A stretch of DNA of 64,000 bases. Origin: Callorhinchus milii. Lineage: Eukaryota. Where the stretch lies: contig NW_024704743.1 of NCBI RefSeq assembly GCF_018977255.1, forward strand, positions 1,364,001 to 1,428,000, in the 5' to 3' direction. The notes under the pieces are model-generated. The model saw only the letters and a list, made by a program, of their open reading frames with translations, was not told the origin of the DNA and searched no databases. A program made the position numbers and the translations under genes. This document shows, in pieces, positions 8,180-59,332 of this stretch. Position 1 is the stretch's first letter. The number at the start of each line of letters is the position of its first letter.

Positions 8180-8546
8180 TAAAATAATAATAATCCTTAC
8201 ATTTGACACAGCGCCCGATCACGTCTTCGAGACGTCTCAAAGCGCTTCACGGGATAACACTGCAAAGTGAATCGACTGTGTTTTGTGGGCGAAACGCGGC
8301 AGCCGATGGCACACAGCGGCGTTCCCCCACAAACAGCCGCGGGTTGAGTGACCAATTTTTAAAAAAAATTAGGTGGGGGAAGATTTTTACCCACGAAAAG
8401 CCATTGCCAATCAACTGACAACCGGGTTCCTACTGCGTGTGTGTGTGTGTGTGGAGTAATTAAACTTGCCCAACTTTTCGCCCGGGAATCGGACCCAGGT
8501 CCTCTCGCTTGCGAGGCGAGTGCTCTAACCCACTGAGCTACAGGAC
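8180..8546 (-). mobile_element. SINE, full length
   Basis: Complete head-body-tail match. Confidence 0.9.
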
Positions 8547-9367: not shown

Positions 9368-9442
9368 CTGTGCAAAGAAAGAGGAAGTTTTTACAGGTCT
9401 TGGGGCAGACATCTGAGAACAATTCAAAAACAATGCGGCCCA
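9368..9442 (-). CDS. NKTR: NKTR coding exon ([26 protein letters not shown])
   Basis: 75 nt, cttacag|TGGGC...GCACAG|gtagg. Continues the frame of the previous exon; cyclophilin [13 protein letters not shown] motif. Confidence 0.96.
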
Positions 9443-19821: not shown

Positions 19822-19879
19822 CTGGAACCCTGTTTATCTCCACGTCAAAGTAGCATTGAGGACGGTTCTTCACCCCCAT
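19822..19879 (-). CDS. NKTR: NKTR first coding exon (MGVKNRPQCYFDVEINRVP/V); the exon probably begins at 19904 with 5'UTR
   Basis: Reverse complement ATG GGG GTG AAG AAC CGT CCT CAA TGC TAC TTT GAC GTG GAG ATA AAC AGG GTT CCA G|gtaag. 58 coding nt, cyclophilin N-terminus. Upstream acceptor cctcctcctctttgttctgaatcag at 19905-19906. Confidence 0.93.
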
Positions 19880-21554
19880 CGCAAGGCACACTCTGTGTTC
19901 ACACCTGATTCAGAACAAAGAGGAGGAGGTTGGCAAGGTAGCCGTGTCAATGAATCTCTGCTGAACCCGGTCAGGACTCTATGTAAAAGCGACCTCTTCT
20001 TAAAAGTCTTGCAGGCATCTATTCTCTCTTTTTCTCTCTCTTTCTTGCACTCTGCTCTCCCTCCCTCCCTCTCCCTCTCTCTCTCTCTCTCTTCCTCGCT
20101 CTACTCTCTTCTCTCTCCCGCCCTTCCTTCTGACGAGCCGACTCTCATGCTATCAAAGACGGCACAAACCGTCTTTTCTTCTGCGGGTGACGAGCGACGA
20201 GCAGTGTGTGAATGAGACGCTCAAAGGCAGAGGAACACACAAGTCTCCAACAGCACGAGAGGGAGTGGGGAAGGGGAGGGGGGGGGGGGGAGTGTGGGCG
20301 GGGGATTGAGATTCATATGCAAACTCATCCTTTTCGTATGACACCCAACAAGCCTATTAAGCAAAACACTCTTGAGACAGTCACTCTTCAGTAATTAAAC
20401 AACACTGCTGTCCAGAAGAGCTGAAGGAGTACTAATTGAAGGAACTAAATTAAGAAAGCAACACAGCAGCAGCAAAATAACACACACGTACACACACGTA
20501 AATATGCACCGACGGTGCAATTAAACATGCAGCGTTGTGCCACAGAAATTAAAATTAAAAATTGCAAACAATTGTCTCTTTGCGGAGAGAGGAAAAAACG
20601 CACACATTTCTCGAATTCGGTCTGATATTCAATGCGTGTCGTGTCATGTCGCAATTCGCCTGGGAACAGGGACATGAAATATCACGTTGAAAAAATAATT
20701 GATAGCAATAAGGGCCTATCGATTCCCACGGGCGGTTTAGTTTTGCTTCAGCAAACTAGGAGCTACCACATCGCGCACGATTCTGGTCTCTGGCTCTCGC
20801 TTACATAGATTTCAACGACGACGACTTGTATTTACACAGCGCTTCTCGCACAGGGTTTACAAGCCCCAGAGCGCTTGATAGTGGTGGAGCGCGACTCTGA
20901 GCCGGGAGGGGGCAGAAGACGGTCGAAGGGGAAGGCGTGTCGTGAAAAAGGGGCAGGAAGGGGGCGAGGCGGAGGGGGATGGAGTAAGAGCGTTCCAGAG
21001 TTTCGGAGGCCTCGTGGCTGAAATACATCAATATAGTCCCAAGATTTATTTACTGTCGCTCTCTGACCTTCAACGGTGAAAGCCCCTTCCCTGGAGAGTT
21101 TTAAAAAAGAAGACCTGTGTGTTTTGCTTTCTTTTGTTGTTGGATTTGAAGTCCACCCACACGGCAGGGGATCAAAGACATCTAACCTTGCCTCAGAACG
21201 TCGGGAACTGGCTTGCAGTTCACGAGCCAAACAAGCCCCGCGCTACCGAAACACCACGCGGCCATTTAAGACGTTCGGTGCACGCGACAGTGAAGCTTCA
21301 GATCAAGTACGATATCGACTGAGACAGCTTGAGAAACGGCACCGGGAGACGAGGAGCCAAAGTGGATGAAACGCGAGCTTTTAGGACAACAACAAGATTA
21401 CATTTGTACAGCGCCTTTCACGTCGGGAGGACATCCCAAGGCGCTTGACAGTGTACAGCATTTGAGACCCGAGCTGAGGTTGGGGAGGGGGGAGAAGGGA
21501 GGGGAGGGGAAGGAGGATGACTGATGGCACGGTCGAAGAGTCAGGTACAGGCTA

Positions 21555-33491: not shown

Positions 33492-36400
33492 CACAATGTT
33501 CTACAAGACATGTTCAAAGCTTCAAAATAAATAACGATTTCTACCGGTTCAGGTCACTCAAACTCCAGATTAAGATTTCGCGCCCACGAAATACACAGTC
33601 AAGCGCCTTGAGGCGTCTCCAAGACGTGATCAGGCGCCAAGTCAAATGCAAGGATTATTTATATTTGTGCCTGGAGTTGTCCTTGGCCTCCGGGATAATC
33701 CTGGAAAGGAAAATTTGGCTTCAATGAGAGGTCTTTGTGTGAGCCAGCCAAATACGGCAAAGGACTGTTAGGTTGGATTTAGACCAGGCTGCGGTTTGAA
33801 GGTGCAGAAGTGGGAGGTGTACCCATCGTACCTGTGCTGGCTCTTTGAAAGAGCCTCCAACTAGTCCCACTCTCTCCCTATTTACTCTCATCAAAACCCC
33901 TCATGGTGTGGTACACCTCTATCAAATCTGCCCTCAACCTTCTGTGCTCTTGAGGAAGGAGAACAATCCCAGGTAGGAGGCAGTGCGGGAGGTGCCAGGG
34001 CTTGGAGACTCTTAGCCAGGGTATTTGGGGGGAGGGTGATCAAGGAGGCAAGGTCAAGGCTAGCGAGAAGAGTGTCATTGGGTCAGGAGTTTAGATGACT
34101 TGAGGGCAGGAGAGTGGCAGCGGGGGGGCGATATCCAAACAGGTTGAGACCACAACAACAGTGAACAGGATGCAGAGCTAATCTGCAGTACAGGATGTGG
34201 AGCTAAATTAGGTACTGCATACAGTTTTGGTCAATGTGACACAGGTTCGTCATCCAAGTCCTTGGGACATCACAGAGGAGAACAAGCAACTAGGAGCCGT
34301 GGGAGAATTACTCGAATCTCAACCCGGGACCCGACGGAAGGCAGATCTGATTATAGCACCTTATCCTCATCGCTGAAATGTTCCCAAGCACTTCACAGCA
34401 AGAAAGCGAAGGGAGTTAAAAGCGAGGGCGGGGTTCAAGGGTGGGAAGGAATTCAGCTCTTGTGAACACCAGTAAACAGGATCCTACGAAAGCAGGATCC
34501 TACTGCTTGCAGCTGGTGCAACTCGTGTTGCGTTGGTCAGCTCATGCTCACATCAATCTGGGCAGGCTGCCAACTCAATGCAAATTTGGAAAGCACGTCA
34601 CTGACCTGAGCTATATGTTCTGAGACAAGCATCTTGATTTTTTTGGATAGTGGGAATCAGAAGAAAGATGAGGAACTCAGATCGGCAGAAAACACAGGAA
34701 CAGGAGGAGCCCGTTCAGCCCCTCGAGCCTGTTCCGCCGTTCTATCAGATCACGGCTGATCTGTACGTCCGACTCCAATTTGTTTTCCCAAAAAAATTTT
34801 AATTCAAAATTTAAAAAAAAACACACAATTAAAAACTAAAAAGAACTAAATTAAAAATAAAAAATCTCACGGGAACAATGTTTAACTTCGATGCTTCGCG
34901 AAGGCACCAGTACGCATCAAGCTTTTATAGACTTCCGGAGCATGAATAACTAATGTTTTTTTGGTCAGTCTGTTTGACACAAGAGAAAACCCATCACCGT
35001 GTTTAAGAGTACCCAAACCAAACAGAGTTCCACCTATATTCTCGAGATCGTCAATAAATAAGTCAGCTTCCACGGATCCAATGTCTGAGATAAACTTATA
35101 TTAGGCCTCAGTGAAATGTCCCAGAAACTCAGGTCAATAGGAATTATGAAAATAATAATGATCCTTGCTTTTGAAATAGTGCCATAATCATGTCGTGGAG
35201 ACCTCTCAAAGCGCTTCACAGAATATATTGTAGAGTGAAGGGACTGTGTGTTTTCGGGGTGATATGAGGTAGCCAATTATGCACTGCAGTGTCCCACAAA
35301 CAGGCTTGAAAGACCAAATTTTTTTTTGAGACGAGTGTTCTAACCATTACGCTCCGGGAAACTATGGTTTTGCACTATTCCATTCGTTATTAGCAACCAC
35401 ATGGTCCTCACCAGACGAGCAGTGGGAAGCTTGCCAGTCAGCTTACTCTGATTATTGAGAGCAAGTGTTGGCCAATGCAACTTGAGTTGTAACAGCTGTA
35501 AGCAATAGGATGCTGTCTTTATAGAATCCTGTTTTGTTGGTGGTTCACAAGGGCTTCATCCATCTCTGACATTGTCATGGGTTGACTTTCTCTGCAAAAG
35601 TCAGCCTGGCGCGGTGGTAATCTCTTGCCTCAGAGCCAGAAGGCTGTGGGTTCAATAGTAAGCTGCAAACTTTAGCTGGTTAAGCTGCAGCAGTATCTCA
35701 ACACAACCTGTGGTGTCCAGGGTCAAGTCAACTTGCACCTTGCAAATTCGCCATGCTAAAGAGAAAAAGCAGGGGAGTGAGACTGATTGGGTGGCTCTTT
35801 GAAAGAGCAGGCACATTCGATGAGCCGAATGGCCTCGCTCTGTGCTGCAGGATTCTACGATTCTATGATACTCAAGATGAGCAGGTTGTGTCTTCATAGG
35901 GTCCTATCATCAACGGGTATGGAGTGTGAATCCTGTCCAGAATAATGGGATTGAAGTCCGGATCGAGGCTGCTTTTAGCAATGAAGGGACTACCAGAATT
36001 AGTTGAGAGATTATATAACAGTGATTAGGAATGTTGATCGATGAAAGGATAGGGGCCACAGGAGATGCATGTTGGTCAGACTTGCCAGAGACACGAAGGA
36101 ATAGTTAAAACATCACCACTGAAGATCACAGGTTGAGTGATTGTCATTGAAATAACACTAATAATAACACTACGACTAATAATAATCCTCGCATTTGATA
36201 TAGTGCCTTTTACGTCTTCCAGACGTCTCAAAGCGCTTCACAGGATATACTGTAAAGTGAATTCATTGGCTGTACAGCAGATGCAAGGATTATCATCATG
36301 GTGCACCAAAATTTACAGCAAGCTGCATTTGCAAACTTTCTCTCTGTTAATGAGAAGAAACGAACACAACAAAGCTAAAAAAAACGCAATCTAGAACCCT

Positions 36401-39062: not shown

Positions 39063-40834
39063 CGTTGAAGTGAACGGCTACCTTAAGGCATTCTAGCCAG
39101 TAGTGACCTGGTGACTTGGGAGCACACTGAGTGGCATTCTTGCCTGCGGGTGAAAAGGTTGTTGGTTCAAGCTCCGGGTCAGGGTTTGGAACTGAGACTC
39201 GGCTAAAACTCAAAGCACTGCCGAAGAGGCGCTGCGCTGTGAGAGCTGCTGTTTCTCCAGATCTGGTTCATAAATTGAGATCCCATCCGTTGAACATTAA
39301 TGATCCCATATTTCTGTGGGAAATGAGGGAAGAATAAGCAGAACATCTCTGAAATTGGCCATTCAATTTATGGCTGTTTGTGGGGCACTGCACTTTACGG
39401 AAAAAATAGTCTCAAGTGCTTATGTAATAAGGCACCACGTCAAATGCAAGATTATTAAAAAGAACGTCCACCTCATTGAATGGTTATGGGACCTTGCTGT
39501 ACCACTGGCTTTTCCATGTGTAGGTGGGACGCATGGAATTGTCAGTTTGGTTTGGAGACTACCCTCGACACAAGATGCTTTGATGTTACAAGACACCATA
39601 AAAATTCCTCGCATGGCGAGAAGTGGAGATCATCAGGATGAACACGAGTATTAAATACCTCCTCCGAGGATCGGCGCGTGGCTCAAGAGAAGGCGAAATC
39701 CACACAGCTTTACTTCACGTCAGCAAAACGCCACTGCTTATCAAAGCCAGCCGCACTCTCAAACACAACCCAGATTATTTTTTCTTGCAAAAAAAACCGT
39801 GATAGCCACAGAATCATTGAATTATATACACAGCACGGAAGGAGGCCATTCGTCCCATCGGGTCTGTGCCGGCTATTTTAAAAGAGCCATCCAAATCAAT
39901 CCCACTCCCCTGCTCTCTCTCCCCATAGCCCTATAAATTGGTCCACCCCCAAATACCAGCAGCTTGCATTTGATACAGCGCCCTTATCATATCGTCGAGA
40001 CGTCTCAAAGCGCTTCACAGGATATACTGTAAAGTTAATTGACTGTGTGGTTCGTGGACGAAACGTGCCAATTGCGCACAGCAGCGTCCCCACAAACAGA
40101 TTATTAGCCCCGGAAAGCGATCGCTTTCTGTGTCATCATATCTCAATTTTTAATTGAGAGATTTTTTGTCTTCTGTGTGCGCTTCTACGGGTTAAGCACC
40201 ACCTCAAGCAGCAAAATAGCTATGATAAAACGGCTGGCCCACTGTTGTCAGCTTGGCAGTCGCTGTAGCATATAGAGAGAGAACATTGCTGCCAGCTGAG
40301 AACTTTAATTGAGCTCTTCGCTTTCACAGTCCAATGTAACAGAAACCATTTGCAATACACACAGGATAGGAAAGTGAAGCAGTAATTACACGTCCAAAAC
40401 TGCCAGGAGATTAATATTCAACCCCCCGGTGAGTACAACAGAGCAAAACAAAATTCGCAATTAATGAACTTGGAAGTTAAGAATCAGACAGCGCTTATTG
40501 GTTTGCTGAGTCGATGAAGAGGTTTGGGATAACAGTGATTACATTCATCCATACATGGGAGTCCTGTAGCTGAGGGGTTAGAGCACTCGCCTCACAAGCG
40601 AGAGGACCCGGGTTCGATTCCAGGCAGGTCAGGGCGAAATGTTGGGCAAGTTTCCTTACTCCACTGACCTCTCTTGCTGTCTGCTGTACCAGAACAACAG
40701 AACAGCATGACTAACGGAGGGTAACTCTTACCACAACGCGACCAGATACTTGAGCGCTAGTGAGCTAGAGTTGTAAACTGCAATCCATGGCTTCCTGAGA
40801 CCGTTTAGATTTCCTCCTCATTTAAAAACAACGC

Positions 40835-44100: not shown

Positions 44101-45269
44101 GGAAATCGCAGGGGAATAAATCATCCTCACACGCACGCACGCAAAAACAGGTCACCAGCAGGAGCTCTTGCGTGTGATGCAACTGATGTTTGGAGTGGTA
44201 GAAACTTGGGACTTCAAAGGGTTGGTGCTTTTCAGGCCTACTTTGCAACCATCGATTCAGTCAACACAGCAAAGCAAATGTCCTTCCTACACAAGCCTAA
44301 CCCGCTAACCCATTACCCCCAATGTGGGAGGTTAGGGTTAGCGATTCCCGGGAGGAGAGAAACCTTAGGCAAGTTTGCTTACTACACACACACAAGCCTC
44401 TGTTTACCCAGCAGTAAGTAGGAGCTCGGTTGTTAGTCGATTGATGGATGGCTTTCCGGGGCTAATAATCCCTCCTAAAAAGAAAAACGATGGTGACTCA
44501 ATCGACGAACGTTTGTGGGACACCGCTGTGCGCAATTGGCTGCCGTCTCAGCGACATAACAAATTAATCTGAGGGATTATTACTTCCATAAAGCGATCTG
44601 CCTATCGACTAACAACCGGGTTGCTACTTACTGCTATGTAAACAGAGGCGTGTGCGTGGAGCGAGGAAACTTGCCTAAGGTTTCACAAGAAATGCAGGTC
44701 CTGATGCTTTTACTCTGAGTTGGGAATAGACGTCAGAGCTAAGTTGGAGCCTTGCTCAATAAAACTAAATGCAAAGTTAGTCTGGCAGTTCAGGGGCGGA
44801 ACATGCAAGCACAGATTTGAAACCCCCCCAAAAATAAAACGTTGCAAAGTACATTTTGGAGGCACGTTTGCTGTTACAAAACCTTAACTCTGACCGCATT
44901 AGAGCTTCGAAGACTTGCCTCTTTCCGTCAAACTCAATTCCCTCCTTTGTTTAGGTTGCCTTTTCGTTATCAATGCATTAGATACCAACGCAAGGATCAA
45001 TTAGACGCCAGAAACCTTTGCTGGTTAGATGCCCTTGGGAAAAAAAACTGCCTATTCTTGTAACTGCGCAGAATGCTGGTGGAGACGCACGCGGGCAGAC
45101 GCCGAGTATTTCAGGCGGAGCGTTTTCGCTGTTTACAAAGCTGCAGTAGGAAGCAATACCAAGTATTTTAATTTAATAATTCATTACTTTCAAACTTACG
45201 TCATCTCTTGAAGGCCACCTGCTAATGCCTTGTGCTGGCAATGGTTTCTATGACAGTGTCCTTCTGGAA

Positions 45270-45590: not shown

Positions 45591-48589
45591 CATAGTATCA
45601 CTGAAAAGCTCACGCTTCTAAACAATTACTAATAAACATCTTATGCTGCGAGTTATTCGTGTAAGACACGAGGAACACCGTTTCAATGGGTGACGAAGGT
45701 CCAACATAAATAAAACTGTCAAAACTGAAAAAAAAAATCCTGAGATAGGTCTGGAAAATTGCATGTGTTTTTGAAACGTTTCTCTGTTGAGGAAGAGGTC
45801 TGCTGGACTTGAACGAATATAGGGAGGTCTGAAGTCTAACCAGCTAAGACCACACGGCTTGCCATTGGTATCGCTGTCTGGCAAGCTTTCCCGCAGCTTG
45901 TCCAGCTAAGACCATCGTACCCTTTAGGGCTTTGGTTTGCAGGGTGAACAGGAGCTGAGGGCGGGGGGGGGGGGGGGGGGAGGAGGATTCCCTGGAATAC
46001 TGCTGACCCTCCTGGCTCAGGAACCGGGACTAGAGACCGCCGCACGGGGAGGGCTGGCTCGATTACGACGTTCCATTGCCAAACACGTCACCTTGGAGCC
46101 AGTTCAGCTCCACGGAGACCCCACTTACCTCTGCACGGCACCGTTGATTGAGCAACGCTTCCTGCTCATCTCTCAAGTGCCCTGTGAGCCAACGCCCTAA
46201 AACTCGGCTTTCTCAGCATTCTTTTGACCACCTCAGTTACTTCTTAAAACATGACACGTGAACACAGCCTGATCGGATCCCCCGATCTGGGCTGGTCTTA
46301 TCACATACCAGGCTCTTACCGCTCCTGAACAATAATTGCCCCTTAAAAAATGCGTCAATCAATATCTTCCTCCCTCCCCCCAAGAGGATGCTAAGTGCAT
46401 AAACTCTCCTTCTGCAAGTTCTCAGCGGCTGTAACCACAGAGTCTAAAATACACCAATTAGTCGCTGCAAGTCACACACCCACTTGACCCGTAAGAGCTA
46501 ACGTAAACCAAGTACTTCTTTGGAAGTCTCAGCCACTTCCTCAGCTTTGAAGCTATCTGAGATGCTGACCCACTTGAAGGACGCTATATAAATGCAAGTG
46601 GTTGTACTTGTTTCTTCCTCCACCATTTCACCCACGATCCCTCCGCCTCGCTCCCCTAACCTTTAGATCTCTCCTGAAACGCTAACTCTTTGACTGTACT
46701 TATGGGAACCTTATCCCTTGCTTGCCGTCCAATCCCGGCAGCGTTCAGCACTCCCAAGATGTTAGGCTACAGGAAAGGCGTTGCATAAATCCAGTGGCTG
46801 CTGTCGTTCTTTCCTTACAAGTGCATCTCCTTTCGACACAAATAAGTACCAAATATTTCTGAAGACTTTACTTCCTTGTTCAATGAGTCTGACTGCACCC
46901 AACAAAACCCAAGATGCAAATAGCAAATCAATTCACCCAAGGTCGGTCGGCAAACAATAATAATGATCCTTACATTTGATAGCGCGCCTTATCACATTGA
47001 TGAGGCGTCTCAAAGCCCTTCACAGCACTGACTAAATTTGGTGGGCGAAATGCGGCAGCCAATTGCGCACAAACAGCCGTGGATTGAGTGACCCAACATT
47101 TTTTAGGGAGGGGTTATTTTGCCCGTGGCGTACTGCGGAGCAGGAATAGAGAATTTGTTCACACCCCAAGATTTGAGCCGGTTTGTCTTTAAGCTCGTCC
47201 CAGGCGGGCGGCCATGCAACGCTGAGATATACGGTAGCTTTACGCAGTGAACGCTCCTTGCCTTTACAGACGCTGCTGCTGTTAGGAGGAGCGGGACTTT
47301 AATGCAGGATTTTGTTTGTGCGAGTTGCTTCTGAGCTGGGCTTAGTTTATATTCACGGTTTGTCACTAACCTCAGAGGTGCCTGGACACTGAATGAATCT
47401 ACATTTGAAGTCACATTGAAATGCTGGGTTAAAAGCTATTTATCCATCTGTTCCATCAAGCTGTCGGGATACAGGAATGTGCCAAGCAAGTTCTACCCAA
47501 TGGTGGCATCTGCCTTTGTTTGCTCCTATAACTATACTGCACAACTTTATCTTCTCTCTCCCACCCCCCAGCCCCCCCCACACTCCACCCAGTATTTCTC
47601 ACAGAGCTTATTCAGCTCCATACAGCCCAAGACATTTTGATGTTTTACTGCACGGAGGTTGCTGGGGTTATTGTAAATCGCCGTGTGCAATTGGCTGCCG
47701 CGTTTCACCCACAACACATAAGTCAACTGACTTTACAGTGTATCCTGTGAAGCGCTTTGAGACGTCTCGGAGACTTGATAAGGCGCCGTCTCAAATGCAA
47801 GGATTATTATTAAGCGCAGTGACTGTCTGCTTTGTAGGCAAAAGTGCCAGCCAAAATTGCGCCCAGCACAGTCCCACAAATAGACAGATCTGCTGCGGGT
47901 AGTACACCGAGTCAAGCTACTCACGCTGCGTGCGGGCTCGAGAGAGAGAGAGAGAGAGAGAGGAACGAAAAACCAATGAATGAAACCAAAAATAGAACGG
48001 AAAAGAGCGAGGAGAGCATTACCGAACAACTACCAGAGAGAAGATCCTCGCTGAGATGCAAGAGCAAACTCAAAAATAAAGCGAGTCCAACCACTAAAGG
48101 GGCAGAAAATAGAATCACCAACAGCGCACAAATAAAATAGAACTGCAGACCCTCGGGAACTGCACAAGGCTGCAATCTAACCCCAAACTGAATTCCACTC
48201 ACGACTAAATTATTCATGGACACTCATGTAATACGTCTTGTGCCTGAAAACTACGGCACTGTCAAAAAGACTGATAATGGCTTTAAAAAGCCAATAAACT
48301 GGCAAAGGCTGCACTTGCATCCTTATAATTGTGATTCAGTACATTTCAGGCTTAAAGACGGGGTTCCTTTTGGTGGAGGGGCGGGGTGGGGGGAAAAAAG
48401 GGGTATTTTGGCTAAGGTTGCAGGCAGCCAATCCACCAATAATAATAATAATCCTTGCATTTGATATAGCACCTCATCACATCCCTGAGGCGCCTCAAAG
48501 CGCTTCACAGAACAAATTTGAGGGATGCGGAGAAGGCTTGAGGGAGACAAGAGACATTCCCACCAAGAGGAACTGCGAACAAAACGCTG

Positions 48590-48730
48590 AATAACTGCAG
48601 GTGCTGGAAATCTGAAACAAAAAGCAGATGTCGCTGGGAAAAACACTCAGCAGGTCAGGTCAGGCAGCATCTAGGGAGAAAGGAAAGCGAGTCAACGTTT
48701 CAGGTCCAAGACCTTTCGTCAGAACTGGAA
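48590..48730 (-). mobile_element. Penelope-like element terminal fragment
   Basis: tgcaggtgctggaaatctgaaacaaaaagcaga..ctcagcaggtcagg..cagcatct..aacgtttcaggtc..gacctttcgtcagaactgg resembles a common chondrichthyan repeat end (from memory) and carries a hammerhead motif. Confidence 0.6.
48690..48726 (-). ncRNA. Minimal type-I hammerhead ribozyme motif
   Basis: Minus strand: AGUU-CUGACGA-A-AGGUC(UUG)GACCU-GAAA-CGUU-GACU. It has the CUGANGA and GAAA core boxes, stem II, a palindromic ACGU stem III and stem I AGUU/GACU. Confidence 0.68.
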
Positions 48731-49138
48731 CTAGGAATCTGGTTCAGAGAGTGAAGGCGAGACGCTGAACACACATTAAAGTTTGGCGTCTAATCTGACG
48801 CAAATTGGAGTTGACGTCCAAATCAGCCATGAGCTGTTAGAATGGCAGAACAGGCTCGAGGGGCTGAATGGCCTCCTCCTGTGTTGCTCCGGACGAGAGC
48901 CTCTGCTGGCCTGTCGCAACAGACATGGGAACAAGCAGTTGCCGGCACCACATATCATACAAAAGTAGGCCGAGTGCGTCAAAAAAAGAGCAGTGGACAT
49001 TGCAAAAGGTAACCCAAAGCCAACAGTGGACGAGACCTGAAGCAAAAGCACTCGAGGCCATCGACTTATCTGCTTATTTGCGCAAGAACTGGGGTGAACT
49101 GGAATAAAACTGCACAGAAACAGGCCATTGCTTGATGG

Positions 49139-49225
49139 AAAGTACTTTCCAAGCACAAGGGTATTGGGGAGCCACGGAATCGAATCCTACTACTCCCCAA
49201 TACCCTTGTGCTTGGGAAGTACTTT
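49139..49225. repeat. Near-perfect inverted repeat (33-bp arms, 21-nt loop)
   Basis: AAAGTACTTTCCAAGCACAAGGGTATTGGGGAG (49139-49171) pairs with CTCCCCAATACCCTTGTGCTTGGGAAGTACTTT (49193-49225): 32 Watson-Crick pairs plus one T.G. Confidence 0.93.
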
Positions 49226-49989
49226 GCAATTTATACAGCGGAGAACTGTACAGCTGATTCAGATAGTAATGACCGCTGCACCCCAAGGATGATAGTAAGG
49301 AACTTAATAACCCTTGGATTTGATATAATAATAATAATAATCCTGGCATTTGATACGGCGCCTTATCACGTCTTCGAGACGTCCCAAAGTGCTTCACAGG
49401 ATACACTGTAAAGTGAATTGACCCTATATTTGTGGGCGAAACGCGGCAGCCAGTGTCCCGCAAACAGTCGTGGATTGAGTGACCAAATTATTATTAGCGA
49501 TAGATAGGACAGGACTGAAACTGCTCCACAGATAATTGCTGTCAGCGACTGTGCTGGTGGACACGTTTGCTCCATTCCGACTGCGAGACTGAAAAAGAAA
49601 TCTTCAGGCCTTCCATTTGAAGTCTACTCCCTCTAGTTCTGCCCAGTAGCTAAACAAAAATGTTTAACTTATCTACACCGCTCACTATGTTGGAAGAGCT
49701 GAGTTACTATTCCACGAGTCAGGACACTCCTGTAAGCAATGAAGATGGATCCATACGCACAACAACAACAACAACAAATTACACTTGTATAGCGCCCTTC
49801 ACGTCAGAAAGGCATCACAAGCTGCTCAGTTGCACAACAAGGCATTATTTTATCGAAACGGCTCCTCCTATGATGACCAAGTTATACTGTAGGCCAGACC
49901 CACATAACGAAACAGGATGCCCACATTGTTTTGATTTAGGTTGTTCCAAATTATCCAAACCGCCGCTCGTCTACTTTCCACTGGCCATT

Positions 49990-52820: not shown

Positions 52821-53989
52821 CATCATCCAATCTTGCTCACGTCACAAGCTAATGGAACCGCAGCATCCCGTGACAAGTTAAAATAACAAGGAGGAGACGA
52901 AAAGAAGGGACAAAAAGAAGGGAAAAATAACTGCGTCGCAAGCCGGCAATCTAACTAAGGTTGACAAACCCAAGAAAGCACACCCGAAGCTTCAAAAATT
53001 CATCATAAATTTGGCAAGCGACAACTTGTTTTCACGATTCAAGAAAGACAACAAAATGACATCTGTGAAGCGCCTCTCGGGTCGGGAGGACGTCCCCGAC
53101 GGCGCTGAACAGTCGGGGAAATCAGGCAAAATTCAAAGCAGAACAAAAAAAAAATGAAGGAAACACAAGACTCCAAACTCCCCCGCCCTCCTCCTCCTCC
53201 TCCGCCCTCCTCCTCCTCCTCCTCCTCCGCCGCCGCCCTCCACTCCGATGCCTCCAGAAACATTCAAAAATAACACTCATCCGTCGCGACAGAGAATGAT
53301 CGCAATCCGAAGGACGAAACCGAAACCACAACATTGAAAAATCCTCTCTCTCTCTCTCTCTCTCTCGGCCACAAACAAACACACGAAAACTTCACAATCA
53401 ATGGAAAGCAAAGCTCGCACCAGGAACCACCGAACTTGCAGACGATTACGCTCTCTGTCGCCCGACAGTCGTCGTCTGGGTGTAAAGGAATTCCGATAGT
53501 CTATTTAACGCGGAACCCCTTCCCCGCCCCCCCCCCACCGCACCGCACCGCTCCACCCACCCAAAAATATCCCAAACTGTTCAGCTGAACTCCGTTGAAA
53601 TCTCCGCTGAAGACGAGGAGAATTTCACGTCGAAACGACGCCACTTTTTAAACTGGATTTTAAATCCAGGGGGGGGGATGGGGGGGGTTGGTGGGGGTGG
53701 GGAGGGGGGGGATGGGGGGGGGTTGGTGGGGGTCTCCAAAGAAAATGCAGAGCACAAACATTAAAAGCAAATGTAATTATTAACTGAATTAAAAGTAAAA
53801 ATAAAAGTGAAGTCGAATAAAAAGCTACAAAACACAATGACAGACAACAACACAGCGACAGCCCCCGGGGGGGGGGGGGGGGACAGGGGGGGACAGGGGG
53901 TCCCGGGCCGGGGGGAGATACACAGAGGGTACACCGAGGTTTGCGGACGAAGACAACGCAGGGGGAGGTGGTGGGGGAATAGTGGGGGC

Positions 53990-54045: not shown

Positions 54046-54146
54046 CCCCCCCCCTCCCACACCCACACCCACCCACAATGCCTCAGGGGCAACGGTGACA
54101 ACAGCTGAGAAACAGCAGCTCAGACTGTGAGGATCATGGGCTGAAC

Positions 54147-55071
54147 TTAGCCCCTCCCCCTCTCCCCCCCCCACCCCCTGCACTGTCTCCCCCTCCCCCA
54201 CACCGTCTCCCTCACCCCCATACCCTCTCTCTCCCCCCCACCCCCTACACCGTCTCCCCTCCCCCCCCCCCACCCCCACACCGTCTCCCTCACCCCCACC
54301 CCCCATACCCTCTCTCTCTCCCCCCCCCACCCCCTACACCGTCTCCCTCTCCCCCCCCACCCCACACCTCTCTCTCTCTCCCCCCCCACCCCCTACACCG
54401 TCTCCCTCTCCCCCCACCCCCCGCACCGTCTCTCTCTCCCCCCCACCCCCCATACCCTCTCTCTCCCCCCCCACCCCTACACCGTCTCCCTCTCCCCCCC
54501 ACCCCCCACGTCTCTCCCCCCCACCCCCATACCCTCTCCCTCTCCCCCCCCCCCACGTCTCTCTCTCCCCCCACCCCCATACCCTCTCTCTCCCCCCCCC
54601 ACCCCCTACACCGTCTCCCTCTCCCCCCCCCACCCCCCACACCGTCTCCCTCTCCCACCCATACCTCTCGCTCTCCCCCCCACCCCTGCACCGTCTCCCT
54701 CTCCCCCCCCACCCCCCACCGTCTCCTCTCCCCCCCACCCCCCGCACCGTCTCCCTCTCCCCCCCCACCGTCTCCCTCTCCCACCCCCATACCCTCTCGC
54801 TCTCCCCCCACCCCTACACCGTCTCCCTCTCCCCCCCCACCCCCCACACCGTCTCCCTCTCCCACCCCATACCCTCTCGCTCTCCCCCCCACCCCCTACA
54901 CCGTCTCCCTCTCCCCCCCCCACCCCCCACACCGTCTCCCTCTCCCCCCCCATACCCTCTCGCTCTCCCCCACCCACCCCCCACACCGTCTCCCTCTCCC
55001 CCCCATACCCTCTCGCTCTCCCCCCCCCACCCACCCCCTACACCGTCTCGCTCTCCCCCCCCCCATACTTT
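54147..55071. repeat. C-rich minisatellite
   Basis: Alternating units cccc(t)acaccgtctccctctcccccccc and cccccataccctctc(g/t)ctctccccc. Confidence 0.93.
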
Positions 55072-55096
55072 NNNNNNNNNNNNNNNNNNNNNNNNN
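55072..55096. other. Assembly gap (25 N)
   Basis: Run of n in the sequence. Confidence 0.99.
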
Positions 55097-55795
55097 GGGG
55101 GGGAGACAGAGGTCGTGGGGAGGGGGTGATGGAGGGGGAAAGGGGGACTGGGGGTGAGGGGGTACAGTGTGGGGGTGTAAGGGGGGTGGGTGTGAGGAGA
55201 TCTCGGGGGGTGAGGGGGTGGGGTCTCGGGGGGGGTCTCGGGTGGGGGGGTGTGGGGTGAGGGCTGTGATGGGGGTCTCGGGGGGGTGTGGGGGGGTGTG
55301 GGGTGAGGGCTGTGATGGGGTCTCGGGGTGTGGGGGATGTGGGGGTCTGGGGTGAGAGCTGTGATGGGGGTCTCGGGGTGTGGGGCTGTGATGGGGGTCT
55401 CGGGGTGTGGGGGTGTGGGCTGTGATGGGGGTCTCGGGTGTGGGGCTGTGATGGGGGTGTGGGGTGTGGGGCTGTGATGGGGGTCTCGGGGTGTGGGGCT
55501 GTGATGGGGGTCTCGGGGTGAGGGCTGTGATGGGGGTCTCGGGGTGAGGGCTGTGATGGGGGTCTCGGGTGTGGGGGTGAGGGCTGTGATGGGGGTCTCG
55601 GGGTGTGGGGGGGTCTCGGGGTGTGGGGGTGGGGCTGTGATGGGGGTCTCGGGGTGTGGGGTGTGAGGGGGTCTCGGGTGTGGGGGTGAGGGCTGTGATG
55701 GGGGTCTCGGGGTGTGGGGGTGAGGGCTGTGATGGGGGTCTCGGGGTGTGGGGGTGAGGGCTGTGATGGGGGTCTCGGGGTGTGGGGGTGAGGGC
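55097..55795. repeat. G-rich minisatellite
   Basis: Repeated gggctgtgatgggggtctcggggtg(tggg)(ggtga). Confidence 0.93.
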
Positions 55796-55796
55796 C

Positions 55797-56098
55797 TCGC
55801 TCTCCCCCCCCCTCCATACCCTCTCGCTCTCCCCCCCCACCCACCCCCTACACCGTCTCGCTCTTCCCCCCCCAATACTTTCTCGCTCTCCCCCCCCTCC
55901 ATACCTCTCGCTCCTCCCACCCTCTCGCTCCTCCCACCCTCTCGCTCCTCCCACCCTCTCGCTCCTCCCGCCTTCTCGCTCCTCCCGCCTCTCGCTCTTC
56001 CCACCCCCACCCCCTCACTCTTCCCACCCCACACCCCCCCCCCCCCACCCTCTCGCTCGCGAGGTGAACGCTCTTAACCACTGAGCTACAGGGCTCCA
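55797..56098. repeat. C-rich repeat (ctctcgctcctcccac)n running into a minus-strand SINE head
   Basis: Short units at about 55905-56000; ctctcgctcgcgaggtgaacgctcttaaccactgagctacagggctcc at about 56050-56098. Confidence 0.8.
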
Positions 56099-57269: not shown

Positions 57270-57389
57270 ATGAATCCCGAAGAAGACCATGTCTATGATC
57301 CTGTTTGCCTACGTGGTGCGGGTGGGGGATGGGCTGCCACTCTCAGCTTCCACAGACTCCTTACACAGCAAGGACCTGCAGGAATGTAA
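57270..57389 (+). promoter_or_regulatory. Out-of-frame upstream ORF (39 codons plus stop) overlapping the SEC22C start
   Basis: ATG at 57270 (weak context ttcATGa), 19 nt before the main ATG and inside the same exon; TAA at 57387-57389. Confidence 0.5.
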
Positions 57390-57470
57390 AAGGTACTTGA
57401 AGATTTTGTCCAAAATTCTCGGAGCTTACCCAGGTCGGGGCACTGTGAAGAGCAATCAACTTCAGATACA
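57289..57470 (+). CDS. SEC22C: SEC22C first coding exon (MSMILFAYVVRVGDGLPLSASTD...YPGRGTVKSNQLQI/H), longin domain; exon starts at 57259
   Basis: ttgcag acceptor ending 57258, accATGt start, 182 coding nt, ATACA|gtgagt donor. The RV.DGLPLSASTD motif is typical of SEC22A/C. Confidence 0.95.
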
Positions 57471-57745
57471 GTGAGTATGTCAAAGCACACACCACACATA
57501 CTGCATTGAATGCCATGAATTGTCTTTACTGGAAATTCACAATTGGGAATTAACGGCTTTAGATTTAATTCCGTTGTGAATAACACCCCTTGGAAGTCTC
57601 GGATCATAAAGTGCTGTTGAACTCAACCGTTGACAAAGTTGAGCAGATGCTGCCTACAATGTATGCATTGTACATCACAGAAGCTAACGTGTGTGTGTTT
57701 TTTCTCTCTCTCTGTTACTAACTCTCTAAACACCTTTTTTTCCAG

Positions 57746-57909
57746 TTTTAATTCTTTACAGGGTGTGGCCTATATGACTATCTGCTGTAGTTTCTATCCC
57801 ACTACTTTGGCGTTTTGCTTCCTGGAGGAACTTGGAGTGGAGTTTGTGTCTTCTTATGACCACACTAAAGTCCACATGGTCTCCAGACCCTACGCCTTTC
57901 TTGAATTTG
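57746..57909 (+). CDS. SEC22C: SEC22C coding exon (FNSLQGVAYMTICCSFYPTTLAFCFLEELGVEFVSSYDHTKVHMVSRPYAFLEF/D)
   Basis: 164 nt, ttttccag|TTTT...TTTG|gttag; AF.FLEEL and RPYAFLEFD Sec22 motifs. Confidence 0.95.
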
Positions 57910-59332
57910 GTTAGTTTCCTACCTTTTCGCATCTTAATTCTTAGTTTTCCCCCCCAACCCGCGCCCAATTAACCTTTGTGCTTGTGGTGGACAGTGCAAT
58001 ATCATCCCTGGAAATTTGTGCTTGCAAATTGGCTGCAAACAGATTAACTTCAATCTGATTGAAGCAAAGTCAATAGATACTGTTAGAAGGGAATTAGCTA
58101 GGTGTGAACAAACAGGAATTTAATGGATGTTTGGGGGAGTGTCTTTATTTAACCAACAGTAAGTAAGAACCTGGTTTTTAGACGATTGGTGGATCACTTT
58201 TCCGATTAATTTGGTCACTCAATTCACGGCTGTCTGTGGGACACCGCTACCGTTTTTCACCCACAAAATACACAGTCATTCCACTTTACAATATATTCTG
58301 TGAAGCGCTTTGAGACGTCTTAACGATGTGATTGAATCTACGTCCCCCGGTTAGTGACCTTCCAGCCAGTGGAAACAGTTTCTCCTTATCTACTCTTAAC
58401 AAAACCCCTGATAATTTTGAATCAGAGACTGAATGTTGGGGTGGGCTGCAAGTCTATCCACTACATCATTGGGGCTGTCGTACTTCACGGTCTTACTCTT
58501 AATCCCCTTGTCCTAATATTTGAGATCATGAAGAATTTTAGAAAATCCTTAAATTCCATTATTTGGAAGCCTTTTCTGCAGATCTCTCTGGTTACCGCGC
58601 AAGACTAAGGTGAAGACTTGACAAAAACCAACACTGTGTTTTGTAAACTAAAAAGTCAGCAACTAAACTTTAGACTATTAAAGTACCAAGACAGGGACTC
58701 CCAGGAAGGGACTTTTTCTATATGTTAATTGTCTTTCTTTTTTTTAACAACAGCGAATTACATTTGTATAGCGTTTCACGTCCGGAGGATGTCCCAAAGC
58801 GCTGGGGTTATATTGAGGGTTGTATGTTTAAAATGTGAAAGATTCCTTTAAAAGTTAACTTCAGTTGCTTGGCTAGTGACTCAGTGCTAACAGATAATTA
58901 TCCTTGCATTTGATACAGCACCTTTCCTGTCAGGAGGACATAACCTTTAAGGATTTTACTGTGAAGTGGAGTGACAGTATTTGCTAGGCAAACAAAATGG
59001 AAATTCATAGATTTTAGCTCGTCTGCAGTGAGCGCAGCTGAGGCTTGATTTTCAGCTTCTTTAGACCTGCAAAAATATTTGAGTTTAGGTTTAGGGGCTG
59101 TAACGATGCCTCACATCTATTAATAATCCTAGACAGTATCAAAATCTCTTAGGCTTGAACAGCACTCTCCATCATATGATAGTGTTCGCGTGATCCATTA
59201 TAACGTTATTTCTATTTCTTTTTAACCCACGTTCTCACTCAGTCGTCCCAGCTTTCAATGCTTACAGTGCTCCCATTTTTCCTTCCAGAGCCGCCTGCCC
59301 ACACACTCGTCTGCGAGCTTCGCATCAGAAGT

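Follow-up and report, generated by a model that had tools for sequence, protein, structure and literature searches.

The question raised by this locus is whether a short motif on the minus strand of a 64-kb window (the whole stretch of DNA that was analysed) is a genuine hammerhead ribozyme, what kind of element carries it and whether it is likely to act where it now lies. Direct reading of the minus strand (48726 to 48690) gives the 37-nt motif as AGUU CUGACGA A AGGUC UUG GACCU GAAA CGUU GACU. In standard numbering, the core box CUGACGA (C3-A9) occupies 48722-48716 and is followed directly by one extra A at 48715, and the GAAA box places G12-A14 at 48701-48699. Stem I, whose arms lie at 48726-48723 (5') and 48693-48690 (3'), consists of four pairs, namely A-U, G-C, U-A and a U2.1-G1.1 wobble adjoining the core. 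Stem II is made of five Watson-Crick pairs (48714-48710 with 48706-48702) and a 3-nt loop, and its closing pair is A10.1-U11.1 (48714 and 48702) instead of G-C, a departure on which the initial annotation is silent. Helix III is replaced by the palindrome A15.1-C15.2-G16.2-U16.1 (48698-48695), and U17 is 48694, which puts the predicted cut after GUU, at 48694/48693. The motif thus combines the CUGANGA and GAAA boxes with U16.1-H17 and a palindromic 15.2/16.2 pair, the features by which the minimal type-I class is recognized, and the strand, position and cut site given in the initial annotation were borne out by direct reading and numbering.

Some observations would fit a chance arrangement of letters. 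A plain pattern, CTGANGAN{4,30}GAAACGTH, matched once in the window, and this loose pattern alone was equalled in 8 of 100 shuffles; the folding energy of the motif is not unusual by itself (z -1.28). A search with Rfam hammerhead models returned nothing for the motif: at the gathering score the 64-kb window gave nine matches, all to tRNA and none to a hammerhead family, and at E<=10 the 501 bases of 48450-48950 gave five unrelated matches and no hammerhead. However, a search with a structural descriptor that adds a stem II of at least 4 bp, a stem I of at least 3 bp and the 15.2/16.2 pair, and that was composed after the motif was known, found the motif site alone on both strands of the whole window and found nothing in any of 1000 dinucleotide shuffles in 2-kb blocks. 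Moreover, the motif lies within a high-copy repeat whose relatives retain the core, and traits beyond the core boxes (the extra nucleotide after A9 and the palindrome) suit the published class. A chance origin is largely refuted by these results, and we leave it almost no probability. A second CUGANGA...GAAAC combination at 53607-53636 on the plus strand was set aside, as it is without U16.1 and such combinations are at chance level (2 found compared with 1.3 expected).

The published class to which the motif was compared is that of the minimal hammerheads (min-HHR) of metazoan Penelope-like elements, defined in 2014 and described in the available part of that study as type I, with helix III absent, a palindromic 15.2/16.2 pair, an extra nucleotide after A9 and a highly conserved G10.1-C11.1 (PMC4209133). 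Their consensus at more than 80% is NNN CUGANGAH G...C GAAAN palindrome NUH NNN; they occur in thousands of copies per genome, mostly as single copies, and most of those in animals have been attributed to truncated Penelope-like elements (PMC4209133). The motif agrees with this consensus at every named position except 10.1-11.1, and it shares with the class the type I arrangement, the CUGANGA and GAAA boxes, the extra nucleotide after A9, the C-G palindrome and the short helix I. The identification as a minimal type-I hammerhead made in the initial annotation is therefore supported by the published alignment of 56 motifs, as far as the accessible part of that source extends. Unlike most of these, in which stem II opens with G (51 of 56 rows, counted by eye), the present stem II opens with A-U; A(-U) is found in 3 of the 56 rows and U in 2, so that this pair does not exclude the motif from the class. 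The GUU triplet, described as weaker in the initial annotation, is no sign of decay, as C-G-U-U stands in 15 and C-G-U-C in 13 of the 56 published rows (by eye; PMC4209133). We accordingly dropped both A10.1-U11.1 and GUU as marks of decay: both occur in published rows, and no alternative of 10% or more is listed at 10.1 or 11.1 among related copies. No published cleavage rates were found for GUU or for A10.1-U11.1. In the examined supplement of the 2014 study (file 2, holding the alignment; PMC4209133), no shark, skate or Callorhinchus term appears, and none of the titles and abstract openings searched, a scope outside which most subscription journals lie, describes a minimal hammerhead in a cartilaginous fish.

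The motif had also been claimed to lie inside a repeat, and contig depth in four of four public runs confirmed this. Assembled contigs of these runs, which bear three organism labels, were placed on 48400-49100 at 80% likeness. In all four runs, summed contig depth per bin was approximately 850 to 1,076,000 at 48592-48735 compared with 0-17 at 48736-48783; such depth is not equivalent to copy number. The high-copy dispersed repeat that bears the motif, likely a 5'-truncated Penelope-type terminal repeat, is placed by this depth at 48592-48735 on the minus strand; it is about 144 bp long, with one end roughly 9 nt beyond stem I on the 5' side and the other 102 nt beyond the cut site on the 3' side. 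No second copy of this region, tandem or inverted, was found within the 64-kb window.

The same contigs, which are selected for likeness to this copy, allowed it to be compared with its relatives. On the 3' side of the motif, it differs from most of them at 48624, 48629, 48674 and 48688 and carries a 5-nt local duplication (48651-48655, minus strand) that 92-98% of the depth lacks in each of the four runs, and signals among the relatives are mixed at 48632 and 48639. Inside the motif, three alternative letters stand among those listed, none of them the majority in any run: G1.1 to A (3-38% of depth), with which pairing to U2.1 is retained, U1.4 to C (1-18%) and C15.2 to U (3-18%), a CpG change. 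For stem II and the core, including A10.1 and U11.1, no alternative reaches 10% among those listed, where counts are partial in two of the four runs. By this comparison, the motif resembles an intact form of its subfamily, and the A-U closing pair seems to be common to many copies of the repeat.

An 8-bp direct repeat, ACGCTGAA, is a weak candidate for a target-site duplication, with its left copy abutting the repeat end (48584-48591) and its right copy at 48762-48769. As 123 of 3000 random placements (4%) gave a direct repeat as long as this match, the duplication is only a candidate; if it is real, the insertion would be 48592-48761. One 170-nt contig equals 48679-48848 without a difference; the RNA nature of its run is a guess, and because the contig extends 15 nt beyond the cut site and may be DNA, it is uninformative on expression or cleavage.

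The surroundings are rich in other repeats, which make up 26% of the window by self-BLAST, and two of them flank the motif copy (48434-48518 and 48803-48882). The latter and 34700-34782, which are 87% alike, belong to a second high-copy repeat that is abundant in all four runs and that we take to resemble the 3' end of a CR1-type LINE. The former belongs to a dense tRNA-derived SINE-like family spread window-wide (for example 48434-48518, 40560-40632 and 8482-8540; nine Rfam tRNA matches), with about 40 copies of a common tail. A near-perfect hairpin of 93 bp lies 410 bp from the motif (49136-49228). Its 36-nt arms are 94% complementary and enclose a loop of 21 nt, with a folding energy of -66.6 kcal/mol (z -12.7); it occurs once in the window, has no Rfam match at the gathering score and is possibly a fold-back mobile element or a local inverted duplication. 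An inverted repeat at 44387-44658 (88-nt arms, 81% complementary, 96 nt apart) overlaps repeat-covered sequence and probably represents either a MITE or parts of two SINEs that face each other.

To which kind of element does the repeat belong? Judging from motif class and repeat layout, it is likely Penelope-like. One Penelope feature is a dispersed, high-copy repeat with a hammerhead close to its 3' end, and here the cut lies 102 nt from that end. As described in the available part of Craig et al. (2021; PMC8557442), 5' truncation is frequent in Penelope-like elements and their hammerheads lie near the 3' end, whereas a partial-tandem or inverted partner and a tail of 30-40 bp are frequent but not obligatory. 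The Penelope assignment of the initial annotation therefore holds in so far as motif class and layout fit it, but no open reading frame for a reverse transcriptase (RT) or GIY-YIG domain could be tied to the family. Pfam gave no RT or GIY-YIG hit in 220 stop-free frames of at least 55 aa between 20 and 57 kb, as expected of a truncated copy. Relatives sought by a first pattern amounted to 3 viral and 61 metagenome loci, none of which (0 of 64) was BLAST-similar at E<=1e-3; of 65 matches to this pattern, one was preceded by a core-like hexamer, but its context was not that of a hammerhead. A second pattern gave no viral locus and five bacterial genome loci, which we take as chance.

We propose that the repeat would represent the 3' terminal repeat of a Penelope-like element, and that this copy may have arisen by reverse transcription of uncleaved RNA, initiating about 100 nt 3' of the cut and halting just beyond the motif. 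For the Poseidon element of the anole, the accessible part of one study places the cut 26 nt into the open reading frame and the start of reverse transcription 111-118 nt into it, that is, 85-92 nt 3' of the cut, and reports that the main substrate is uncleaved RNA and that cleavage requires protein (PMC11167929). Altogether, with good though not complete confidence, we regard the motif as part of a solitary copy of about 144 bp of a very abundant repeat, likely a 5'-truncated Penelope-like end and likely inactive here.

The gene context bears on which transcripts might cross the copy. An NKTR-like first coding exon is found at 19822-19904 on the minus strand, with its ATG at 19879, an AG acceptor 25 nt upstream and a GT donor, and further cyclophilin exons lie on the same strand near 9440, 7450, 6380 and 5030, giving five exons from 19879 to about 4950. 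Pfam Pro_isomerase was detected on three of the five exon frames, and for the two exons tested the best PDB match was the NK-tumor recognition protein 2he9 (E 3.5e-17 and 0.0063). On the plus strand, diverging from NKTR, a longin-domain gene, which we take to be SEC22C, starts at about 57.2 kb and is represented by two exon frames (57274-57911; Pfam Longin E 7.8e-12 on 57621-57911). In human, SS18L2 presumably lies between NKTR and the longin gene; here, short SS18L2-like motifs sought between the two genes yielded no convincing exon. In the approximately 37 kb that separate the two genes' first coding exons (19904-57210), we could find no coding exon; the scan, which covered 220 frames of at least 55 aa outside repeats and so could miss short exons, gave two Pfam hits, both below cut-offs. 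A strongly C-rich low-complexity minisatellite block at 54130-56050 (GC 0.70, strong skew), located in the likely promoter region between the genes, contains the only gap in the window (25 N at 55072).

Because an AG acceptor stands 25 nt upstream of the ATG exon, a non-coding first exon of NKTR further upstream is likely, and it is plausible that both genes are served by one promoter at 53-56 kb. The human NKTR first intron is short. CpG counts mark no single promoter, as the 34 at 53.0-53.5 kb are accompanied by 35 at 20.5-21.0 kb and are matched elsewhere too. Three placements of the motif are thus conceivable, namely a sense position within intron 1 of NKTR, an intergenic position, and an antisense position within a 5' intron of the longin gene. 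Of the proposal in the initial annotation that it is sense in NKTR intron 1 if transcription starts near 54 kb, the strand fits and a further exon upstream is likely, but CpG counts do not single out a start near 54 kb and the ATG exon is 29 kb away; the chance of a sense position in intron 1 is about even at best.

Would the motif cleave at this site? In computed folds, the isolated 37-mer forms a rod in which G5-A6-C7-G8 is paired with C15.2-G16.2-U16.1-U17 (probability 0.88-0.99), at -8.9 kcal/mol compared with -6.3 kcal/mol for the open form. With flanks of 30, 60, 100 and 200 nt, the predicted pairing of stem I is <=0.15, <=0.03, 0 and 0, respectively, and an active-like dimer (-10.5 kcal/mol) is predicted to be less stable than the best dimer (-26.8 kcal/mol) or two rods (-17.8 kcal/mol); none of these models takes account of Mg2+, tertiary contacts or proteins. 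By analogy with the published systems, cleavage after GUU in the parent element would take place only when two copies pair via the ACGU palindrome and so form helix III; alternatively, an element protein would assist folding and thereby enable cleavage. The one published minimal monomer for which an assay is described in the available part of the 2014 study was not cleaved, and its dimer and trimer were cleaved weakly (PMC4209133). As neither a partner copy within the 64 kb nor a nearby RT or GIY-YIG frame was found, as the predicted rod would block the core and as that published monomer remained uncleaved, cleavage activity at this site appears unlikely. The earlier caution that a lone copy may be inactive thus gains support, in part from modelled folds. 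With no second copy in the window and no element reading frame alongside, the copy is predicted to be a passenger, whichever host transcript may cross it.

Two other readings of the repeat deserve consideration. It could be a stand-alone unit of a non-autonomous element with a hammerhead (a non-LTR retrozyme or a SINE-like derivative) that uses Penelope enzymes, and not the shortened remnant of an autonomous one; in that case the monomer would still be inactive. The copy is short and begins just 5' of the motif, and no open reading frame is linked to the repeat here; in addition, the accessible part of a recent preprint indicates that non-LTR retrozymes derive from Penelope terminal repeats (pLTRs), exist as monomers and are present in the one chondrichthyan sampled (bioRxiv 10.64898/2026.07.22.740005). 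However, there is no tandem unit in the 64-kb window, none of the 15 joints listed (202 further ones exist) falls within 48592-48735, and the minimal form, in which helix III has no loop, is tied to Penelope repeats in the 2014 description, as far as it is available (PMC4209133). We therefore consider a solo retrozyme-like unit unlikely, and retain the truncated Penelope-like end as the preferred reading.

It could also be supposed that the motif, in NKTR intron 1, cleaves the pre-mRNA slowly, in trans with RNAs from other copies of the repeat or assisted by an element protein, and so modulates NKTR output. The motif is on the NKTR strand, the splice acceptor at the ATG exon makes an upstream exon likely, the search of 20-57 kb revealed no further coding gene, and amniotes are described as having conserved intronic hammerheads (PMC6155905). 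Within its 37 nt the motif shows no difference from its relatives, compared with at least five over the 98 nt on its 3' side. At a divergence of 5-7%, however, a Poisson estimate for no difference in the motif compared with five to seven in the adjoining 98 nt gives p of about 0.07-0.15, that is, an unchanged motif would be expected about 7-15% of the time, and the contigs were chosen by likeness; this is therefore no evidence of selection. CpG counts do not single out the candidate NKTR start, energy models disfavour the active fold, anole RNA-seq contained no read that starts or ends at the cut site in the results available (PMC11167929), and 1 of 9 Xenopus retrozyme dimers was cleaved and 8 of 9 were not, according to the accessible part of Li et al. 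(2026; bioRxiv 10.64898/2026.07.22.740005). Modulation of NKTR by the motif is thus highly improbable in our view. A bolder form, in which an intact Penelope-derived minimal hammerhead within NKTR intron 1 would undergo conditional cleavage, by trans pairing with RNAs of thousands of related repeats or through an element protein, so that retroelement activity tunes the pre-mRNA, we regard as exceedingly improbable. If solo motifs did cut host pre-mRNAs in trans, it would matter, because such genomes contain very many of them; as found, the locus matters little, being another solitary minimal hammerhead in a Penelope-type repeat.

Compared with known systems, and within the parts of the cited sources that were available, the putative Penelope-like repeat can be set beside Poseidon of Anolis carolinensis, with which it shares a hammerhead near the end of a terminal repeat and an element end about 90-100 nt 3' of the cut. 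The likeness is one of layout: Poseidon is complete, active in vitro and cleaves with the help of protein, whereas the present copy is a fragment of about 144 bp without an open reading frame. Like non-LTR retrozymes, the repeat is non-coding, carries a type I hammerhead and is likely related to Penelope terminal repeats, but those elements are defined by tandem units each with a hammerhead, and this copy is solitary, the only one in 64 kb. With the ultraconserved intronic hammerheads of amniotes (for example, that of RECK; PMC6155905) it shares a possible location in a host intron; in contrast to those, each of which is one locus conserved across species and drawn with tertiary interactions, it is a minimal motif in one member of a high-copy repeat. 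Among the minimal hammerheads themselves, the motif is an ordinary member of a class already defined in 2014, to which it would add an A-U closing pair and a taxon that is likely to be a cartilaginous fish, a group with no named representative in the examined 2014 alignment.
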